Counted from the stretch's first letter, positions 5,596-14,222 are shown. The stretch: DNA of 32,000 nucleotides from Vibrio cholerae ATCC 14035 (GCF_000621645.1 NZ_JHXR01000004.1:90001-122000); one strand, 5' to 3'. The notes: a model not told the origin generated them from the letters alone. Program-made: numbers and translations.

Positions 5596-5772
5596 GTGGA
5601 CAATTCGGTTGTTACCCAGCTGAAGAAAGAGTTCTACGCGCAGTTGAGCGCGTTGCAAGCTCATTCAGCGCCACAATCAAAACCGACACTCTCGGTATTA
5701 ACCGATGAAGAGTTACGTCAATTAGAGCAAATCTGGATTGAGTTGAGCGTCTGGAAGAAGTCGCAAAACTGA
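5596..5772 (+). CDS. Small hypothetical protein, 58 aa, GTG start (absent from the ORF track because it is under 60 aa)
   Basis: Hand translation gives VDNSVVTQLKKEFYAQLSALQAHSAPQSKPTLSVLTDEELRQLEQIWIELSVWKKSQN*. GGAGAG (5585-5590) lies 5 nt upstream of the GTG. A strong + strand terminator follows 32 nt after the stop. Codon choice looks like the neighbouring genes. No family recognised. Confidence 0.4.
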   Translation: MDNSVVTQLKKEFYAQLSALQAHSAPQSKPTLSVLTDEELRQLEQIWIELSVWKKSQN

Positions 5773-5803
5773 TTATTTTTATCCCTATTTTGATGCTTGA
5801 ATG

Positions 5804-5831: not shown

Positions 5832-5996
5832 GTTGCTCAAAAAGGCATTTGTTATAACATAACAATTTAAGCCTTCGAGTGATCTTTTCTTTGAAAAAAG
5901 GGGTATGAGCCCTCATAGTTAGGTCACTAGTAGAGACAAGTTATGCAAATGTTGAGAAACGTGCATCCCGTTACAGAAATTCAAGTGAGTGCAAAC

Positions 5997-6593
5997 ATGG
6001 CGGAAGTAAGAGCCAGAGTCGATTTTAAAGTCGGTGCGAAAAGCAATATTGACGCAGAAATCCTGTCATTTCATGGACTGCAATCAGACAAAGAACACGT
6101 TGCAGTGATTTTCAAATCAGCGGATACCACCCAAGAAGCCCCGCTTGTGCGTATGCACTCGGAGTGTTTAACGGGCGATGTTTTCCATTCGTCTCGTTGT
6201 GACTGTGGTGAGCAGCTAGAAGAAACCATTACTCGCATGGGGCAGTCAGGCGGCATCATTCTGTATTTACGTCAAGAAGGGCGAGGTATTGGTCTGTACA
6301 ACAAGATTGATGCGTATCGCTTGCAAAGTCAGGGTATGAATACTTATGAAGCCAATAATCACCTCGGTTTTGGGGATGATCTGCGTGACTTTACGGAAGC
6401 CGCACAAATGCTACAAGCCTTGGGGGTGAAGAAGATCCGTTTGGTGACGAACAATCCGAAAAAGATCCGTGAGTTACAAGAACATGGCATTGAGATTGTC
6501 GAGGTGGTTCATACCTCGGCACACATCAAAGACGGTAATGAAAATTACCTGAAAGCCAAAGTTTCTCACGGTAAGCATCAACTCAAACTGTAA
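5997..6593 (+). CDS. ribA: GTP cyclohydrolase II
   Basis: Collinear with E. coli RibA as recalled ([25 protein letters not shown] zinc/Cys motif, [16 protein letters not shown]). I prefer ATG 5997 (198 aa, E. coli-like length) over the track start 5943. The start is uncertain. Confidence 0.92.
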
Positions 6594-6649
6594 CCTTCAG
6601 TTTTATAAATAGATTCGCGTTGCTGCCGATAATATCGCATGTTATTAAA

Positions 6650-6671
6650 CCCCACACTTGTGGGGTTTTTT
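6650..6671 (+). terminator. Rho-independent terminator after ribA
   Basis: CCCCAC-actt-GTGGGG stem followed by TTTTTT. Confidence 0.75.
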
Positions 6672-6723
6672 GTGTGTTCAGGTTGAAAAAAAATTGTAAA
6701 TTTGTATTATTTGCACCGAAATA

Positions 6724-6742
6724 ACAAATGATAATAATTTGC
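6724..6742. promoter_or_regulatory. Fur-box-like operator upstream of irpA
   Basis: ACAAATGATAATAATTTGC matches GATAATGATAATCATTATC at 13 of 19 positions by hand alignment, including the core AATGATAAT. It sits in an AT-rich promoter-like tract 31 nt upstream of ATG 6773. Confidence 0.6.
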
Positions 6743-6772
6743 AATTCATATCAAGCTCAACAAGGACGCTCC

Positions 6773-8035
6773 ATGAACGTTAAGTCTATTCTCTCTTCCA
6801 CCATCTTAGCTTCACTGACGCTCACTACATCAGCGAGCTTCGCTGCAGCGCCAACTCAAGCCCAAGTGGTTGAACATTATGCCGATATTGCGTATGCCGT
6901 TTATGCCGATTCACGTGTGACTGCGCAGCAACTGCAAAAAACCATCGACCGTTTCTTACAAGCTCCGACCGCACAAGGTCTGGAAGAAGTGAAACAAGCG
7001 TGGTTGGCGGCGCGTGTGCCTTATCAACAATCAGAAGTGTTCCGTTTTGGTAACGCGATTGTCGATGACTGGGAAGGTCAGTTGAACGCGTGGCCGCTAG
7101 ATGAAGGTTTGATCGATTATGTGGCAGGAAGTTATCAACATGAACTGGGCAATGAAGGCGCAAATGCCAATATCATTGCCAATACTGCACTGACCATTGG
7201 CGCAACGAAAGTTGATGTGAAAGAGATCACGCCTGAGCTGCTGGCCAGCCTCAACGAAATCGGTGGCTCTGAAGCCAACGTGGCATCGGGCTACCACGCG
7301 ATTGAATTTCTGTTGTGGGGACAAGATTTAAACGGCACCAAAGCCGGTGCCGGTGCTCGCTCATACACGGATTATCTGCAAGGCAAAGCCTGTACCAATA
7401 ACCACTGTGATCGCCGTGCACAATACCTCAAAGCCGCCGCGCAACTTTTGGTGACCGATCTTGAGTGGATGGAGAAGCAGTGGGCGAGTGGTGAAAAAGA
7501 TAATTATCGCCAACAACTGCTGAGTGAGTCGGCGGAAAATGGTCTGCGCAAAATGCTGTTTGGTATGGGCTCGCTATCACTGGGGGAATTGGCGGGTGAG
7601 CGTATGAAAGTCGCGTTGGAAGCGAATTCAACGGAAGATGAGCACGATTGCTTCTCGGATAACACGCATAACTCGCACTACTACAACGAACAAGGTATCT
7701 ACAATATCTACACGGGTAGCTACACTCGCGCCGATGGTTCTGAGCTAAAAGGCCCAAGTCTGTACCAATTGGTTGCAGAGAAAGATGCCAATGCTGCAAA
7801 AGAGATCCTGCAACAGTTTGAAGCGGCGCGCACGCAAGTGGGTGAGTTAGTCACGGCAGCTGAAAAAAATAACCAGCACTTTGATCAACTGATCGCGGCA
7901 GATAACGCGGCAGGGCATGCGATTATCAATCAAGCCATTATGGCGCTCGTCGCGCAAACGGGTTCGATTGAGCGCGCGGCAGGCATCATCGGGATCGATA
8001 ATCTAAACCCGGATACGGCAGATCACGAGTTTTAA
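6773..8035 (+). CDS. irpA: Exported imelysin / peptidase-M75-family protein (iron-regulated protein A-like)
   Basis: Track ORF 6728..8035. I prefer ATG 6773, which yields a Sec signal peptide (MNVKSILSSTILASLTLTTSASFA/AAP). It carries the GxHxxE-type motif SGYHAIEFLLWGQD (His 7295-7297, Glu 7304-7306). Family assignment is from memory of EfeO-M75/imelysin proteins. Confidence 0.82.
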   Translation: MNVKSILSSTILASLTLTTSASFAAAPTQAQVVEHYADIAYAVYADSRVTAQQLQKTIDRFLQAPTAQGLEEVKQAWLAARVPYQQSEVFRFGNAIVDDWEGQLNAWPLDEGLIDYVAGSYQHELGNEGANANIIANTALTIGATKVDVKEITPELLASLNEIGGSEANVASGYHAIEFLLWGQDLNGTKAGAGARSYTDYLQGKACTNNHCDRRAQYLKAAAQLLVTDLEWMEKQWASGEKDNYRQQLLSESAENGLRKMLFGMGSLSLGELAGERMKVALEANSTEDEHDCFSDNTHNSHYYNEQGIYNIYTGSYTRADGSELKGPSLYQLVAEKDANAAKEILQQFEAARTQVGELVTAAEKNNQHFDQLIAADNAAGHAIINQAIMALVAQTGSIERAAGIIGIDNLNPDTADHEF

Positions 8036-8241
8036 TCTCGTCACTGTCCTCATCCCTTTCTTCGCGCAATGGCCTTTGGTTTATGCATGGAGAAAGGGAT
8101 AACTTATTTTTGCAATAAAACCCAATCTCGCTTTACGTCGATGATAATTCCTCAATAGTTTGGTATGCAGCGTCAATTCCGCAGCTACTTATACGGTAAA
8201 GGGAATCAGGGATTGGGTCGTTTTTTTACAGGAACCATGTC

Positions 8242-9627
8242 ATGAAGTCGTCTTTATCTCTGTTATTACTCACGAGCGCCTTGAGCAACTTTGCTTTGGC
8301 AACAGAGATTAAATCGGGTGGGGAAACCAGTACCACGAAAGAGGGAGCCAATGCGTTTTCGATGCCGGCCGCGAATTTGCCGATGGCGAAACGCCTTGAT
8401 TTTAGTGTTGGTAACAGCTTTTTCCGCAATCCTTGGGTTCCCGCTCCCGCTTCGACGGATGCGCGCGACGGACTAGGACCTCTTTTTAATACCAATGGCT
8501 GCCAAAATTGCCACATTAAAGACGGACGAGGCCATCCACCAGAGCCTAATGACACCCAAGCGGTTTCCATGCTGGTGCGTTTGAGTATTCCTGCGGTTAC
8601 TGAGCAGCAAAAAGCCATCTATGCGGTCAATGGCGTAGTGCCAGAGCCGACTTATGGCGGGCAGCTACAAGATTTTTCGCTACCCGACCAAAAACCAGAA
8701 GGGCGAATCCACATTACGTATGATGAAGTGGTCGTCACTTTTGCCGATGGTACTCCTGTGGCACTTCGGAAACCGAACCTAAAGATTTTGGATCTCGCTT
8801 ATGGTGAGATGCACCCAGATGTGCAAATGTCGGCGCGGGTTGCACCGCCGATGATTGGACTTGGACTGTTAGAAGCGATCCCGGATGCGACCTTATTACA
8901 GTGGGCTGACCCTGAGGATCGCGATGGCGATGGTATTTCCGGCCGCGTTAACCAAGTGCGCGATGTACGCACTGGCGAAATGGCGATTGGCCGTTTTGGC
9001 TGGAAAGCGGGCCAACCCAACATCATGCAGCAAAATGCGGCCGCCTTTAATGGTGATCTGGGATTAACCAGTCATCTCTTTCCGCAAGAAAACTGCACCG
9101 AAAAACAGACACTCTGCCGTGATTTACCGAATGGCGGCTCACCAGAAGTAAGCGATAACATTCTGGATTTCGTGGAGTTTTATGCTCAGCACTTAGCGGT
9201 GCCTGTGCGTCGTAACGTGCAAGATCCTCAGGTGCAATTGGGTGAAAAACTGTTTGCTCAAGCGGGTTGCCAATCTTGCCATAAAACCAATGTGTTGACG
9301 CAAGAGCTGGCTGAGCGTCCTGCGCTTTCCAAGCAGCGAATTCAGCCGTACACCGATCTGCTGCTGCATGATATGGGCGAAGGCTTGAGTGATGGTCGTC
9401 CAGAGGCCTTGGCATCTGCGCGTGAATGGCGTACTGCCCCTTTGTGGGGGATAGGTTATACCCAAGAAGTCAATGGACACACCTATTTCTTGCATGATGG
9501 CCGTGCGCGCAATGTGCTGGAAGCGGTGCTGTGGCATGGCGGTGAAGCGCAGGCGAGCCGCGATAAGGTACTGCAGTTTGATAAAGCGCAGCGTGAAGCG
9601 CTGGTGGCCTTTTTGAATTCACTCTAG
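8242..9627 (+). CDS. Exported di-haem c-type protein, DUF1111 / cytochrome-c-peroxidase-like family
   Basis: Sec signal MKSSLSLLLLTSALSNFALA/TE. Two CxxCH haem-c attachment motifs are present: CQNCH at 8500-8514 and CQSCH at 9268-9282. Confidence 0.85.
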   Translation: MKSSLSLLLLTSALSNFALATEIKSGGETSTTKEGANAFSMPAANLPMAKRLDFSVGNSFFRNPWVPAPASTDARDGLGPLFNTNGCQNCHIKDGRGHPPEPNDTQAVSMLVRLSIPAVTEQQKAIYAVNGVVPEPTYGGQLQDFSLPDQKPEGRIHITYDEVVVTFADGTPVALRKPNLKILDLAYGEMHPDVQMSARVAPPMIGLGLLEAIPDATLLQWADPEDRDGDGISGRVNQVRDVRTGEMAIGRFGWKAGQPNIMQQNAAAFNGDLGLTSHLFPQENCTEKQTLCRDLPNGGSPEVSDNILDFVEFYAQHLAVPVRRNVQDPQVQLGEKLFAQAGCQSCHKTNVLTQELAERPALSKQRIQPYTDLLLHDMGEGLSDGRPEALASAREWRTAPLWGIGYTQEVNGHTYFLHDGRARNVLEAVLWHGGEAQASRDKVLQFDKAQREALVAFLNSL

Positions 9628-9636
9628 GAGAGAAAG

Positions 9637-10644
9637 ATGAAAAAAACAGTGACTCTGCTAGCGGTGTCTTTACTGGCTGCGTGTCAGAGTGCTCCAGACA
9701 TGGAGCATCCTAGTCAAGCGGTATTCGAGCTAGAGCGTGAATCTGCCCACCTTCTCGCTGAGCAAACCAAGCAGTTACAGCAGCGTATGGCTCACTATTG
9801 CCAAGCGCCGACGACGGATATATCAGCACTGAAACAAGAGTGGCAAGCCAGCATGCAAGGTTGGATGGCCTTACAAGGACAGCAGCGTGGGCCGAGTGCC
9901 GCATTAGATTTGAGCTGGAATATGCAATTCTGGCCAGATAAAAAAGACACGACTGGGCATAAAATGAAGCAGCTGCTCGCCAAACCGCCAGTATGGGAAG
10001 TCGACGATATTGCAAAACAGAGTGTGGCAGTGCAAGGGTTGGGGGCATTGGAATGGCTCATTTTCGATAGCGCATCGCCTTTGCTGACTGCACCGCAGCA
10101 AGCTTGTCCAGCCGCGATGGCTATCAGTGCGACTGTGCAGCGTAATGCCACTCACATTGCTAAGGCTTGGCAAGAGAACCCATGGCAATCTTTGGATGAT
10201 CGCACTTGGCGTGCGGAGTACATCGCGCTGCTTTCCAATCAGTTGGAGTTTACGCTCTCTAAGCTCAATCGGCCGCTGGCCAACATTGGTCAGCCACGGC
10301 CTTATTTCTCGGAGTCGTGGCGCTCGAAAACCTCGCTGAGCAATATGCGTTATAACTTGTTGGCGATTCAAGCCTTATACCTTGCCGATGGCAAAGGTAT
10401 GGATGCGATGCTGCGCCAACAAGGTATGGTTGCCACGGCGGATCGCGTCACCACGCAGTTGGCCGGGATTATCGAAACTTGGCCGCAACAAGCAAGCCTG
10501 TTTGATTTGCTGCAAACCAAAGCGGGGTATCGCGAGGGTTTAGTTTTGCGCGACAAGCTCGAGCAACTGAACTATTTGCTGCACGACGAAGTGGCTGTGG
10601 GACTCGGTGTGGTCATAGGGTTTAATGCAACCGATGGTGACTGA
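9637..10644 (+). CDS. Imelysin-like lipoprotein (degenerate motif paralogue of irpA)
   Basis: AGGAGAG lies just upstream of the ATG, 9 nt after the previous stop. Lipobox LLAAC (MKKTVTLLAVSLLAACQS). The segment QGLGALEWLIFDS aligns to the irpA GYHAIEFLLWGQD motif with Gly in place of His. Confidence 0.78.
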   Translation: MKKTVTLLAVSLLAACQSAPDMEHPSQAVFELERESAHLLAEQTKQLQQRMAHYCQAPTTDISALKQEWQASMQGWMALQGQQRGPSAALDLSWNMQFWPDKKDTTGHKMKQLLAKPPVWEVDDIAKQSVAVQGLGALEWLIFDSASPLLTAPQQACPAAMAISATVQRNATHIAKAWQENPWQSLDDRTWRAEYIALLSNQLEFTLSKLNRPLANIGQPRPYFSESWRSKTSLSNMRYNLLAIQALYLADGKGMDAMLRQQGMVATADRVTTQLAGIIETWPQQASLFDLLQTKAGYREGLVLRDKLEQLNYLLHDEVAVGLGVVIGFNATDGD

Positions 10645-11707
10645 TGCAACACGTCGCCACTTATTGCAAGTGGCGCTTTTTGGCTGCACGACACCTTGGC
10701 TAATCAGCGGTTGTAGCTCTGCGCGATCGCCCCAGCCAGCCTTGATTGGCTGTGCAATAGAAGGGCGAGAACGCTTTAGTGTAGTGATGGCAGATAACGC
10801 TGGGCAGGCGGTTGGTAAGCTTGCCTTACCTGCTCGAGGGCATGGTATTGCCATTCACCCAACGTTGCCGCATGCGGTGGCTTTTGCACGCCGCCCCGGT
10901 CAGTTTATGTCGGTGTTTGATTATCAAACGGCTCAGCAAATTGTGCTGCGTCCCGCCGATACGCAGCGTCACTACTACGGACATGGTGTCTATTCACATG
11001 ATGGCCGCTACTTATATGCCACGGAAGGGGGGCAGAAAACCAGTCGTGGTGTGATTGGCGTTTATGATGTGACTCACCACTATCAAAAAGTCGCGGAATG
11101 GAGCGGTTTTGGGATTGGTCCTCACGAAGTGATCTTGATGGCCGATGGTCGTTTGGTTGTGGGGGTTGGTGGCGTCCACACTTTTGGCCGTGAGCCGTTA
11201 AATCTAGAGAGTATGCAGCCAAGTTTGACTTACCTCTCAGCGCAAGGTGAGGTACTGGAGCAAATCACTTTACCTGATCGCCATCTGAGCATCCGTCATT
11301 TGGCTCATGATGGGGATAACACAGTCCTGTGTGGTCAGCAATATCGCGGCCAGCCAGACGATTATCCTCCCTTAGTTGCCATGCACACGGGGACTGGTCC
11401 GCTTAAGCCATTACAAGCAGAGCCTGAGCAGTGGGCGCGTTTTAATCACTATATTGCCAGTATTGCGGCGACCGATGAGTGGATTCTTGCCACCTCTCCC
11501 CCCGGGAATTGCTATGGGATCTGGTCAAAAGCCACGGGCGAATTGGTGGAATTAGCCGCTTTAGCCGATGCTTCCGGCGTGGTTGTTCGCCATGGTGCTT
11601 TTCAAATCAGTTCGGGGTCGGGCAAAATCATTTTGCAATCTGCACCTGAGCTCTCGCAATCGCATATGAGCAATGTGATGTGGGACAACCATTGGTCAGC
11701 GATCTAG
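10625..11707 (+). CDS. DUF1513-family protein with twin-arginine signal and lipobox
   Basis: The N-terminus MQPMVTDATRRHLLQVALFGCTTPWLISGCSS has a Tat-type T-R-R-x-L-L motif and an I-S-G-C lipobox. It overlaps the upstream gene by 20 nt (11 nt if ATG 10634 is used). Family name is from memory. The many short Gly/His-containing repeats suggest a beta-propeller, but I could not test that. Confidence 0.72.
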   Translation: MQPMVTDATRRHLLQVALFGCTTPWLISGCSSARSPQPALIGCAIEGRERFSVVMADNAGQAVGKLALPARGHGIAIHPTLPHAVAFARRPGQFMSVFDYQTAQQIVLRPADTQRHYYGHGVYSHDGRYLYATEGGQKTSRGVIGVYDVTHHYQKVAEWSGFGIGPHEVILMADGRLVVGVGGVHTFGREPLNLESMQPSLTYLSAQGEVLEQITLPDRHLSIRHLAHDGDNTVLCGQQYRGQPDDYPPLVAMHTGTGPLKPLQAEPEQWARFNHYIASIAATDEWILATSPPGNCYGIWSKATGELVELAALADASGVVVRHGAFQISSGSGKIILQSAPELSQSHMSNVMWDNHWSAI

Positions 11708-11956
11708 GCATAACCCTCCTACTTGATGTGGCAGCGGCGTTGGCCACGTTTGTTCACCCCATAGTCTCTCTGGGCTTATGGGGATGAACGTACTTGCCGC
11801 CGCCTTGCTTGCCATCATCCTGCAACGCTCATTCGTTTGGGAATAGAACGACCGACGATAAAGATGAGACACGAGTGAAAATAGTCCTATCAATAGCTTA
11901 ATTTTGCGGCTGAGTTTTGCCATACTTAGTGCATCTTCAGCCAGTAGGGCGTTTTG

Positions 11957-13528
11957 ATGAAAAGCCGAGTCGTTGCCGCTATCGCATTGTTATTCTTTGT
12001 TATTCCGTGTTCTGCCACCCAGCGTTTTGTTGAATTGGGGTGGATTGATAGCACTTCGCCGGTCAATGAACAGATCACCAACCCGGCTTTGGTTGAGCAA
12101 ATCTATCACAGTAACAATGATCAGTTACTGTGGAGCGATCTTGCCACAGCGAACCATTTTGAAGCTCAGCTTGAGGTGATTCACCGTGCGAGTTTCAGCC
12201 CTTTATTTAGCCGACAACTTTTCGCGCTCAAAAGCTATCGTCAGCAAGATAGATGGCATGAGTATGATGTGTTAGCGACCGACACTTTACTGCAATACCT
12301 CAGCTATGCTGAGCAGGCACCAAAAGTCGGTATTGCTTGGTTTTTTGAAGGTCAACTTGATCAACCTCTTGCTCTGCCGAGTGAAGAGGCGCAACTGGCT
12401 TTGCATATGGCGATCGGTAACCAGTCGCTCGCTCGCTTAATGGATGAATACACCCCACAAGACCCTGCTTATCAACAACTGCTGCAGGCGTATCAATCAC
12501 TCTCGAGCATTGAGTTTAATGAGGTGGCACTATACGAGCAGATGGAGCGGCTTAAGCGTCCGGGTGACCCATTAAGCCACCGTGAAGCTTTAGTGCAGCG
12601 TTTAGCTCTGGTGAATCTGGATACCACATCCATCTTGAATGATGTGGCCTATTACGACGCCTCGCTTGAAAAACCGATCAAGCAGTTTCAGAAGATGCAT
12701 GGCTTGCAGCCTGATGGCGTGATTGGCCCACAAACCATGAAGTGGTTGAACACATCCGTAACTGAGCGCCTTGCCTTATTAGCGCTTAATGCAGAGCGGA
12801 TTCGCTTATGGCCAACCCAGCAAGACAGCATGATTGTGGTCAATGTGCCCGGTTTTGATATGAAGTATTGGGATGCCGGCCGCGAAGTCTTTGAAGCCAA
12901 GGTTGTGGTAGGCAAAACCACCAGGCCGACACCGGTGATGAATACCAAACTCGATTCACTGATCATCAATCCAACTTGGAATGTGCCGCATAAAATCATG
13001 GTGGAAGACATCCTACCCATGGTGAAACGTGATAGTGAGTATCTCGCCAATCATCATATGGAAATCATTCGTGGTTGGAGCGATCCAGAAGTGATTGATC
13101 CTGCGCTGATTGATTGGGAAACCGTTGATCCGGCAACCTTCCCATACCGTCTGCGCCAACAGGCAGGCGTGCAAAATGCGCTTGGGACCTATAAGTTTAA
13201 TACGCCCAATTCACGCGCTATCTATCTGCATGATACGCCGAGCAAGCATCTGTTTAATAACGCGTCTCGGGCGTTCAGTTCTGGCTGTATTCGGGTAGAA
13301 AACGCTGAAAAGTTTGCGCAAACCTTACTCGCTAATCAGGGCATTACGCTCGACGATTTTCCAGTGAGCACCCAAGCGATTGCGCTCAAAAAGCGCATTC
13401 CAGTCCACATCATCTATCAGACCGTGTGGTATGAAGAAGGTGTGCTACATTATCGTGATGATATTTATCACTATGATGCTTTAGCTCTCGGCAATGGTGA
13501 CGCGTCTCCAAATTTGACTAAAATTTGA
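11957..13528 (+). CDS. ldtA: L,D-transpeptidase, YcbB/LdtD type (YkuD domain plus PG-binding domain)
   Basis: Signal peptide MKSRVVAAIALLFFVIPCSA. PG-binding motif KQFQKMHGLQPDGVIGPQTMKWLN. Catalytic YkuD motif YLHDTPSKHLFNNASRAFSSGCIRVEN. ATG 11957 is preferred over TTG 11954. The symbol follows my recollection of V. cholerae LdtA, the E. coli LdtD orthologue. Confidence 0.9.
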   Translation: MKSRVVAAIALLFFVIPCSATQRFVELGWIDSTSPVNEQITNPALVEQIYHSNNDQLLWSDLATANHFEAQLEVIHRASFSPLFSRQLFALKSYRQQDRWHEYDVLATDTLLQYLSYAEQAPKVGIAWFFEGQLDQPLALPSEEAQLALHMAIGNQSLARLMDEYTPQDPAYQQLLQAYQSLSSIEFNEVALYEQMERLKRPGDPLSHREALVQRLALVNLDTTSILNDVAYYDASLEKPIKQFQKMHGLQPDGVIGPQTMKWLNTSVTERLALLALNAERIRLWPTQQDSMIVVNVPGFDMKYWDAGREVFEAKVVVGKTTRPTPVMNTKLDSLIINPTWNVPHKIMVEDILPMVKRDSEYLANHHMEIIRGWSDPEVIDPALIDWETVDPATFPYRLRQQAGVQNALGTYKFNTPNSRAIYLHDTPSKHLFNNASRAFSSGCIRVENAEKFAQTLLANQGITLDDFPVSTQAIALKKRIPVHIIYQTVWYEEGVLHYRDDIYHYDALALGNGDASPNLTKI

Positions 13529-13673: not shown

Positions 13674-14222
13674 GTGCAAACAACACGTCGAGATTTCTTA
13701 AAACTGACTGCGGGCGGATTAATTTTAGCCGCCTGTACGCCCAGCATCGCGTTCGCGAGTTATGCCGCCAAGCCAAGAGAATTGGCATTAAGCAACTTAC
13801 ATACAGGCGAAAGCATTGAAACGCGCTATTTTAATGGCAAAAATTACGTTCGTTCTGAATTGAAACGGCTGAATCATTTATGCCGTGATTTTCGTCGTGA
13901 CGAAGTGCATGCCATGGATAAGTTGCTGTTTGATCAACTGTGCCAAATCCAATTGCTACTTGGCACTCAAGCCGAGGTGCATATTGTCTCTGGTTACCGC
14001 TCTCCCGCGACCAACAAGCAGCTACGCAGTAAATCAAAAGGCGTGGCGAAGAAAAGTTACCACATGTCTGGGCAGGCCATCGATTTCCGTTTGGATGGTG
14101 TGTCGCTAAAGAAAATCCGTGAAGCGGCGATCAGTTTGCAAGCGGGCGGTGTTGGTTACTATCCGAAAAGCCAATTTATCCACATTGATACCGGCCCTGT
14201 ACGCCAATGGGTCGGTGCCTAA
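13674..14222 (+). CDS. mepK: Tat-exported peptidase-M15A/DUF882 murein endopeptidase (YcbK/MepK)
   Basis: GTG start. Consensus Tat motif TRRDFLK. Collinear with E. coli YcbK as recalled (LSNLHTGES, SGYRSPATN, GVAKKSYHMSGQAIDF, GGVGYYPKSQFIHIDTGP). Confidence 0.88.
   Translation: MQTTRRDFLKLTAGGLILAACTPSIAFASYAAKPRELALSNLHTGESIETRYFNGKNYVRSELKRLNHLCRDFRRDEVHAMDKLLFDQLCQIQLLLGTQAEVHIVSGYRSPATNKQLRSKSKGVAKKSYHMSGQAIDFRLDGVSLKKIREAAISLQAGGVGYYPKSQFIHIDTGPVRQWVGA

Follow-up and report, generated by a model that had tools for sequence, protein, structure and literature searches.

This study analysed a stretch of 32,000 nucleotides from Vibrio cholerae ATCC 14035 (NZ_JHXR01000004.1:90001-122000; hereafter the window, with positions counted from its first letter), and the four genes at its positions 6773-11707, here called g1 to g4, are almost certainly the irpA operon of chromosome 1, VC1264-VC1267. 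Copies of this four-gene envelope module, which is switched on in iron-starved cells, are widely conserved; the operon encodes an imelysin (g1), a di-haem c protein (g2), a degenerate imelysin (g3) and a DUF1513 protein (g4). The explanation that we prefer overall, which combines this identity with an envelope module for iron/peroxide redox chemistry, is offered tentatively, with somewhat less than an even chance of being right.

The exact g4 protein was found on the complete V. cholerae chromosomes LT907989.1 and CP047059.1, where the gene context, from gyrA through ribA to a TRAP transporter, matches that of the window; therefore, the genes are VC1264 (irpA) to VC1267. The Pfam search gave strong matches to Peptidase_M75 (PF09375) for g1 (2e-89, 300.2 bits against a cut-off of 23.5) and g3 (2e-42, 146.5 bits, same cut-off), to DHOR (PF06537, formerly DUF1111) for g2 (8e-102, 341.7 bits, model positions 6-499 of 499) and to DUF1513 (PF07433) for g4 (6e-122, 406.9 bits against a cut-off of 27), which are the four families named in the original prediction made on this DNA. 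Its description of the gene set also held: the coordinates of the four co-directional open reading frames (ORFs) are correct, g2 and g3 are exactly 9 nt apart, g3 and g4 share exactly 20 nt, and the flanks are as stated, namely ribA upstream (5943-6593, monocistronic, with a strong terminator at 6647-6668) and the YkuD L,D-transpeptidase gene ldtA, which begins at 11954 after a 246-nt spacer. Between g1 and g2 lies a spacer of 206 nt (8036-8241). An alternative in-frame ATG of g1 at 6728, chosen as the start by some annotations, falls inside the Fur box considered below.

The export signals of all four proteins, read by eye, agree with those previously listed: Sec signal peptides ending in SASFA/AA in g1 and FALA/TE in g2, the lipobox LLAA-C16 in g3, and in g4 the twin-arginine motif T-R10-R11-H-L-L followed by the lipobox LISG-C30. 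No 19-residue stretch exceeding a Kyte-Doolittle hydropathy of 1.6 was present in g1, g2, g3 or g4; therefore, none of the four proteins is polytopic, as had been claimed.

For the comparison with other bacteria, a DUF1513 peptide pattern obtained from a 12-sequence alignment was run on species-representative genomes and yielded at least 596 confirmed relatives, and 80 loci from Vibrionaceae, other gamma-proteobacteria and many alpha-proteobacteria were examined. Gene order was assessed by six-frame hidden Markov model searches in the 66 loci with enough upstream sequence, since a simple ORF caller overlooks g1 or g3 in many GC-rich loci. The order g1-g2-g3-g4 on one strand was found in 65 of these 66 loci, and the overlap of g3 and g4 is conserved among related loci. 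Because of this order, the conserved overlap and the published co-fitness of the four genes in several bacteria (Price et al. 2016, bioRxiv 10.1101/072470), the four genes are regarded as a functional unit. In the Vibrionaceae the synteny extends further, as ribA-g1..g4-ldtA-DUF882-MBL. In a single locus, that of Hoeflea sp. TYP-13 (L049), the search yielded g3 and g4 but neither g1 nor g2 despite ample sequence upstream.

Clustering of the neighbouring genes across these loci revealed no recurrent inner-membrane permease, TonB-dependent receptor or ABC importer, and both EfeU (FTR1) and the DyP-type EfeB were absent from the window flanks and from the recurrent neighbours in the 80 loci. The lack of a permease, TonB receptor or ABC system in cis, pointed out earlier for the window, is accordingly true of the whole family. 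In cis, no membrane protein recurs other than an outer-membrane porin, and the proposal that the missing partner is an inner-membrane permease encoded elsewhere is not established. Some alpha-proteobacteria insert genes between g1 and g2, which encode bacterioferritin (Ferritin, 1e-35), a Bfd [2Fe-2S] ferredoxin or, in Rhodobacterales, the porin, and the Gram-negative porin of one such locus (L045) matches Porin_4 at 2e-8, above the curated cut-off. At the same insertion spot, locus L054 carries an IS transposase.

The upstream region of g1 provided the clearest link with iron. A Fur-like box with a 13/19 match had been pointed out ahead of g1, and this match and the Fur-type control stand, but the 13/19 score alone is not significant: sites scoring at least 13/19 occur 17 times in the window against about 4 in shuffles, and the score was dropped as evidence, being too common, in favour of the 7-1-7 core and its conservation across species. 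The core at 6729-6743, TGATAATNATTATCA (TGATAATAATTTGCA), matches at 12 of 14 positions; cores of this quality number 2 in the window against 0.19 expected, and a core with up to three mismatches precedes g1 in 21 of 25 other Vibrionaceae loci, compared with 61 of 1453 equal-size background windows (4%). As the 12/14 core is both rare in the window and conserved in the Vibrionaceae, the Fur box upstream of g1 is considered real. Promoter-like hexamers stand a short way upstream of the 7-1-7 core or overlap it, and the weaker alternative among them (TTTGCA at 6710 and AATAAT at 6733-6738) is the overlapping one; the region upstream of g1 is overall no richer in promoter-like matches than shuffles. 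A second Fur box ahead of g2 was considered and rejected by inspecting the spacer sequence, no scan being made.

Outside Vibrio, an ICE/Irr-like box (up to three mismatches) was found upstream of g1 in 16 of 41 loci, compared with 27 of 2246 background windows, and such boxes occur in Rhizobiales and relatives. Fur-like cores precede g1 in several other non-Vibrio lineages (8 of 41 loci; 21 of 2246 background windows). With Fur boxes in gamma-proteobacteria and Irr/ICE-like boxes in Rhizobiales, iron control persists though the regulator switches, and this retention is the strongest computational support for an iron-related role. This switch of boxes, together with the bacterioferritin and Bfd genes inside alpha-proteobacterial clusters, argues for the link of the module with iron.

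Concerning the imelysins, the metal-site motif of g1 (site III, G173-Y-H175-A-I-E178) is invariant in 62 homologues, and the acidic patch at residues 98-116 contains the conserved stretch W-E-G...N-A-W-P-L-D-E. The HxxE motif and the acidic residues match sites III and IV in EfeM, a protein that binds Fe, Zn and Cu in vitro (PMC9174327), so that g1 keeps an EfeM-like metal site. Conservation of g1 is extremely high, and its further conserved features are the invariant loop E288-x-E290-H291-D292-C293, the pair C207/C212 and the C-terminal ...DHEF (residues 414-420), in which D417 is invariant. The relatives found in the PDB were 7XRX, 4ECG and 3N8U for g1 and 3PF0 (IPPA) for g3, and g1 is 64% identical to 7XRX (IcmP) over 390 residues. 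In g3, only marginally similar to g1 (BLASTP E 0.016), the motif GLGALE without His stands in place of GxHxxE, a GxxxxE replacement already published for the second imelysin as the IPPA-type variant (PMC3143127); the acidic patch is lost, the Cys pair is kept, and the C-terminal GFxxxDGD (residues 328-335) is invariant. A lipobox-like motif occurs in 5 of 62 g1 homologues versus 25 of 50 g3 homologues. The C-terminal tails of both proteins recur in the solved homologues, that of g1 identically in 7XRX and that of g3 in 3PF0, and these conserved tails could dock into the active site of a partner.

The di-haem protein g2 has the two CxxCH haem-c motifs that had been claimed for it, at residues 87 and 343 (CQNCH, C87-H91; CQSCH, C343-H347), and they are invariant in 44 and 61 homologues. 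The pair C285/C292 is also invariant, and residues 332-461 form a class I cytochrome c domain with M378 as a candidate axial ligand. The original prediction correctly kept this protein apart from the DyP peroxidase EfeB, with which it had been merged in 2011 (PMC3143127). Searches of the PDB by sequence or profile returned no relative of g2, and its N-terminal haem domain has no detectable relative. A link with redox chemistry and oxidants is drawn because of the invariant CxxCH pair, the peroxide induction of homologues in Leptospira (PMC7567364) and Dinoroseobacter (PMC8007024), the poor colonisation of VC1264 mutants only in mice replete with reactive oxygen species (ROS; PMC6226196), the chlorite sensitivity of a DUF1513 mutant (bioRxiv 10.1101/072470), and a genuine CCP_MauG di-haem peroxidase gene (Pfam 9e-51) that in two Shimia loci precedes g1 by about 90 nt, with the same orientation (L050 4831-5955; L079 4734-5858).

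Much of this framework is found in the literature. Xu et al. in 2011 named VC1264/VC1266 and PA4370-4373 as a Fur-regulated operon without EfeU, and noted that imelysins almost always adjoin DUF1111 (PMC3143127). Price et al. in 2016 proposed ferrous iron uptake, mentioned bacterioferritin in alpha-proteobacterial versions and listed phenotypes with chlorite and metals (bioRxiv 10.1101/072470). VC1264-67 and orthologues are expressed with iron-starvation genes (PMC4324432, PMC7600106, PMC5816637), and the Bacteroides locus BT2473-82, which combines a porin, a 'thiol oxidoreductase' (DHOR) and a peptidase M75, was increased 60-320-fold in iron deficiency (PMC10434189). Our literature searches found no paper establishing a substrate or mechanism for the four-gene module. 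How the genes are ordered, that Fur controls them and that EfeU is missing have been known since 2011 and the four-gene co-fitness since 2016, and the statement in the original prediction that this neighbourhood was iron-repressed and noted by structural genomics is borne out, the same reading having been published in both years. Its interpretation is reasonable but unproven, and repeats these proposals. What is added here is modest: a better Fur test, the taxon-dependent switch of iron boxes, a porin rather than a permease in cis, the lack of detectable membership of DHOR in the CcP/MauG group, and the confident modelling of DUF1513 as a propeller with a Tat (twin-arginine translocation) signal and blade-periodic invariant His.

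Based on this evidence, the redox-module reading can be worded as a mechanism, which we regard as possible rather than probable and of which we infer each catalytic step. When iron is scarce, Fur would leave the box at 6729-6743 and the operon would be transcribed, possibly with g1 in excess owing to the hairpin after g1. The g1 and g2 proteins would be exported by Sec, g2 would be given two c-type haems and g3 would become a lipoprotein, while g4 would fold in the cytoplasm, perhaps with a cofactor, cross by Tat and be lipidated. The lipobox +2 residues, Gln and Ser, suggest an outer-membrane destination of g3 and g4, and an outer-membrane setting is indicated by these lipoboxes together with the porin encoded within the cluster (L045, Bacteroides). 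The four proteins would then constitute an outer-membrane-associated periplasmic redox unit, in which the HxxE imelysin may bind Fe(II)/Fe(III) at its His/Glu site and acidic site, and the di-haem cytochrome may shuttle electrons between the imelysin-bound metal and an oxidant such as H2O2. The outcome would be the production of Fe(III) and the removal of both Fenton reagents. The degenerate imelysin could serve as an anchor or adaptor and the His-lined propeller as a second substrate or cofactor site. Fe(III) would be passed to importers encoded elsewhere, such as Fbp-type systems, and entry across the outer membrane would take place via a porin, in some lineages encoded inside the cluster.

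Several points weigh against this mechanism. Pfam gave no CCP_MauG (PF03150) match for g2 even at E<=10, in hhalign comparisons E. coli Ccp reached a probability of 8% and an alignment of three CCP_MauG sequences one of 5.6%, and the AlphaFold model of g2 is poor (pLDDT 64) and has no Foldseek match below E 0.9, so that it allows no fold-level statement on DHOR. From these comparisons DHOR does not detectably belong to the CcP/MauG group, and 'peroxidase' is therefore only an analogy for g2. The role given to g4 is guesswork. V. cholerae strains without the known iron importers are not known to grow on iron, so that the operon would not be a self-sufficient transporter. The machine for iron hand-off in the style of EfeO/EfeB that had been proposed is likewise not established: g1 scored 21.7 bits against a cut-off of 270 with the EfeO equivalog model NF041757, and g3 gave no match. 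Further, according to reviews, the g1 orthologue IcmP of P. aeruginosa takes part in molybdate uptake, pairing at the outer membrane with ModA, which is secreted (PMC8602904, PMC9769707). Lastly, iron rather than oxidant handling is not established as the function, and the phenotypes indicate oxidative stress no less strongly (PMC6226196; bioRxiv 10.1101/072470).

The alternative nearest to these phenotypes is oxidant defence only, in which the module would detoxify periplasmic peroxide or oxychlorine compounds, being induced along with the iron-starvation regulon since iron-starved cells lose their haem and iron catalases, and would take no part in iron acquisition. The ROS dependence of the VC1264 mutant colonisation defect (PMC6226196), the chlorite-specific phenotype of the DUF1513 mutant (bioRxiv 10.1101/072470), the peroxide induction in Leptospira and Dinoroseobacter, the CCP_MauG gene adjoining g1 in Shimia and the lack of a permease in cis in any lineage examined are all in line with it. 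It is nevertheless judged unlikely, if worth taking seriously, because bfr and bfd genes are found within the cluster, detoxification alone would not account for the EfeM-like metal site that is fully conserved in g1, and two imelysins and a propeller seem to go beyond the needs of a peroxidase.

The propeller itself leads to another alternative. The DUF1513 family comprises 1835 cluster representatives at E<=1e-3, and in 77 diverse members the twin arginines R10/R11 are at least 90% conserved, whereas the lipobox is not; by this conserved motif, g4 is predicted to be a Tat substrate. The g4 protein was modelled very confidently (pLDDT 94, pTM 0.88) as a propeller with some seven blades. Invariant in the same 77 members are H73, H120, H167, H225 and H356, as well as R71, R224, Y276 and D354/N355, and each of the five His lies where the first strand of a sequence repeat starts (RGHG, YGHG, GPHE, IRHL, WDNH). 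From the repeat and the secondary structure, these His may encircle the entrance of the central channel. DUF1513 proteins with N-terminal extensions showed no informative fused domain. NosZ and thiocyanate dehydrogenase are Tat-exported seven-bladed propellers with His-ligated copper clusters, and in their style DUF1513 could be the enzyme, with a His-held metal or cofactor, DHOR as the electron wire and the imelysins as metallochaperones or substrate carriers, the substrate perhaps not being iron. The conservation of the twin arginines but not of the lipobox, the recurrence of the five invariant His, and of Arg, Tyr, Asp and Asn, at matching places from blade to blade, the confident model, the lack of a solved relative in sequence and profile searches of the PDB and in Foldseek, and the pairing of another DHOR with an RCC1 propeller in Leptospira under peroxide stress favour such an enzyme, which we still hold to be rather unlikely: the His ring comes from the repeat and the secondary structure, not from the model geometry, DUF1513 has no known cofactor motif, Foldseek returned generic propellers only, the PDB searches nothing specific, and Tat export may also reflect fast folding rather than a cofactor. 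A bolder version, also unlikely but more open to belief, would place the central catalysis of the module in DUF1513: each of five blades of this Tat-exported, seven-bladed propeller would contribute one invariant His to a metal or cofactor centre at the channel mouth; with DHOR as its electron partner it would be an unrecognised periplasmic oxidoreductase (e.g., of Fe(II) or of oxychlorine/peroxide) served by imelysin metallochaperones and an outer-membrane porin.

A third alternative is maturation, in which the di-haem protein would oxidise a residue of an imelysin or of DUF1513 into a cofactor or metal ligand without turning over a small substrate. MauG with preMADH and MbnH with MbnP are examples of a di-haem protein paired with a partner protein. 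The strict pairing of the di-haem c gene with specific partners resembles these cases, the C-terminal motifs of g2 and CcP/MauG are colinear in both hhalign comparisons (TPxL...T..Y/F-x-H-x-G...L-EAV...AFL-SL), and g1 has invariant aromatic and Cys residues. As the MauG homology is without statistical support and the solved imelysin structures report no modified residue (PMC3143127, PMC9174327), this alternative appears quite improbable.

A molybdate route, with g1 acting like IcmP as the receptor for secreted ModA and the operon serving molybdate acquisition, is very improbable. IcmP has been reported as the ModA partner in uptake dependent on the type VI secretion system (Wang 2021, as related in the reviews PMC8602904 and PMC9769707), and g1 is closely similar to the IcmP-named chain 7XRX. 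However, iron boxes govern the operon, not ModE or anaerobiosis; its neighbours elsewhere are bfr and bfd, with no mod genes in cis; V. cholerae g1 is without the lipobox that few of its homologues have, so it has no outer-membrane anchoring; and the IcmP-ModA claim covers one protein, not the four-gene unit. The likelihood that g1 is an M75 metallopeptidase ('insulin-cleaving') acting on envelope or host proteins is close to negligible, since, for all that HxxE recalls the HExxH zincins and that M75 was the historical MEROPS assignment (PMC3143127), haem-protein operon partners are ill-suited to proteolysis and the reading was rejected on published structural grounds, the fold being unlike known metallopeptidases and the family having been re-assigned to iron uptake (PMC3143127).

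Table 1. Positions of the operon genes and associated elements in the window, and of additional genes in related loci (locus numbers beginning with L; coordinates within each locus)
Feature	Position	Strand	Basis
Promoter-like site: -35 TTGAAA, 16-nt spacer, -10 TATTAT (10/12)	6683-6710	+	consensus match only
Fur box: 19-mer 6724-6742 (13/19); 7-1-7 core 6729-6743 (12/14)	6724-6743	+	consensus and conservation
g1, VC1264 irpA, Sec-exported soluble imelysin (Peptidase_M75)	6773-8035	+	ORF and Pfam
Hairpin with U-rich tail in the g1-g2 spacer	8052-8113	+	dG -25.5 kcal/mol, z -3.2
g2, VC1265, Sec-exported di-haem c protein, family DHOR (PF06537)	8242-9627	+	ORF and Pfam
g3, VC1266, degenerate imelysin lipoprotein, IPPA type	9637-10644	+	ORF and Pfam
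g4, VC1267, DUF1513 protein with twin-arginine signal	10625-11707	+	ORF and Pfam
Long imperfect hairpin after g4, no U-run	11725-11820 (region 11713-11846)	+	dG -56 kcal/mol, z -2.9
Insertions between g1 and g2 (porin, Bfd, bacterioferritin)	L045 5717-6999, L083 5721-7052, L041 5346-6401, L046 5870-7201; L043, L058, L063, L068		
Small Cys-protein genes	L045 3609-4373, L083 3601-4323, L068 303-842, L043 4520-5119, L046 3660-4295, L047, L044, L063		

Two RNA structures accompany the operon (Table 1). The hairpin proper in the spacer, 8052-8100, is followed by the U-rich run UAACUUAUUUUUG, and by a crude test an unusually stable structure occurs just after g1 in about half of 26 Vibrionaceae loci, the window included; this candidate may be a partial terminator, an attenuator or a processing site that sets g1 above g2-g4. 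The hairpin after g4 has a weak match on the minus strand to Rfam V_AS5, a Vibrio antisense RNA, that is below threshold (29.7 bits against a gathering score of 96, E 0.004), and it is probably a transcript 3' end or stabiliser, or a repeat element.

Some observations concern the surroundings and the annotation of the operon. The other 12/14 Fur core of the window, at 13456-13470 (TGATGATATTTATCA), falls within the L,D-transpeptidase gene, at its 3' end, with some 200 nt to go before a DUF882/M15 peptidase gene at 13674, and may be due to chance. A 14/19 Fur-like site at 5765-5783 lies about 160 nt upstream of ribA, and ribA is found directly upstream of g1 in 22 Vibrionaceae loci. Riboflavin has been reported as a repressor of VC1264 and VC1266 (PMC5816637), and the adjacency of ribA and g1 may be more than synteny. 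In alpha-proteobacteria, a family of small Cys-containing proteins (core of about 150-190 residues, no signal peptide, no Pfam match) is encoded directly upstream of g1, with a gap of only 12-16 nt in five of eight loci, and could be an unrecognised fifth component or regulator. In V. cholerae GCA_050486925.1 (L001 6146-9003), g1 is split into pieces of 227 and 194 residues and g2 is truncated at its 5' end, which reflects either pseudogenisation in a single strain or assembly frameshifts. A 254-residue fragment 100% identical to g4 (P0003) is publicly named 'mechanosensitive ion channel [Vibrio cholerae]', evidently a mis-annotation.

The module is widespread, as a single DUF1513 peptide pattern matched at least 596 species-representative genomes. 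Iron starvation strongly induces it in pathogens and in gut commensals, and it is linked to survival in the face of host oxidants, while two of its four families, DHOR and DUF1513, are still without a solved structure or a demonstrated activity. If its chemistry were understood, a real gap in what is known of iron and oxidants in the envelope would be closed, and the means by which the periplasm separates Fe(II) from peroxide could become clear. As the locus in the window had already been flagged in the literature, the value of this analysis lies in sharper hypotheses rather than in the discovery of a locus.

Compared with known systems, g4 shares the Tat signal, the seven blades and the blade-by-blade His with NosZ and thiocyanate dehydrogenase, although no relationship was detected by sequence or Foldseek and the likeness is a lead only. 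With the CcP/MauG/MbnH superfamily (PF03150), g2 has in common the periplasmic location, the two c-type haems, a C-terminal class I cytochrome c domain and a colinear motif, but differs in having no Pfam match, hhalign probabilities of 6-8% and an N-terminal haem domain without a relative. The Leptospira LruB/imelysin and Bacteroides BT2473-82/PIBO loci likewise combine an imelysin with a 'thiol oxidoreductase' (DHOR or cytochrome c) and are induced by iron limitation and peroxide, and the Bacteroides locus adds a porin, as do some alpha-proteobacterial clusters; DUF1513 is not reported in these loci, and the topology of the Bacteroides imelysin is permuted (PMC3143127). With EfeUOB/EfeM the irpA-type module shares an M75 protein with the HxxE site III and the acidic site IV, iron repression, a haem redox partner and one Tat-exported component, but in 66 loci it is without EfeU/FTR1 in cis, and it has neither the DyP peroxidase nor the cupredoxin domain, adds the degenerate imelysin and DUF1513, and its g1 falls below the EfeO equivalog. 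Apart from the lipobox reported for IcmP, which V. cholerae g1 lacks, nothing essential differs from the icmP operon PA4370-PA4373 of P. aeruginosa, which is the same system, with the same four families, gene order, Fur regulation, absence of EfeU and co-fitness (PMC3143127, bioRxiv 10.1101/072470).

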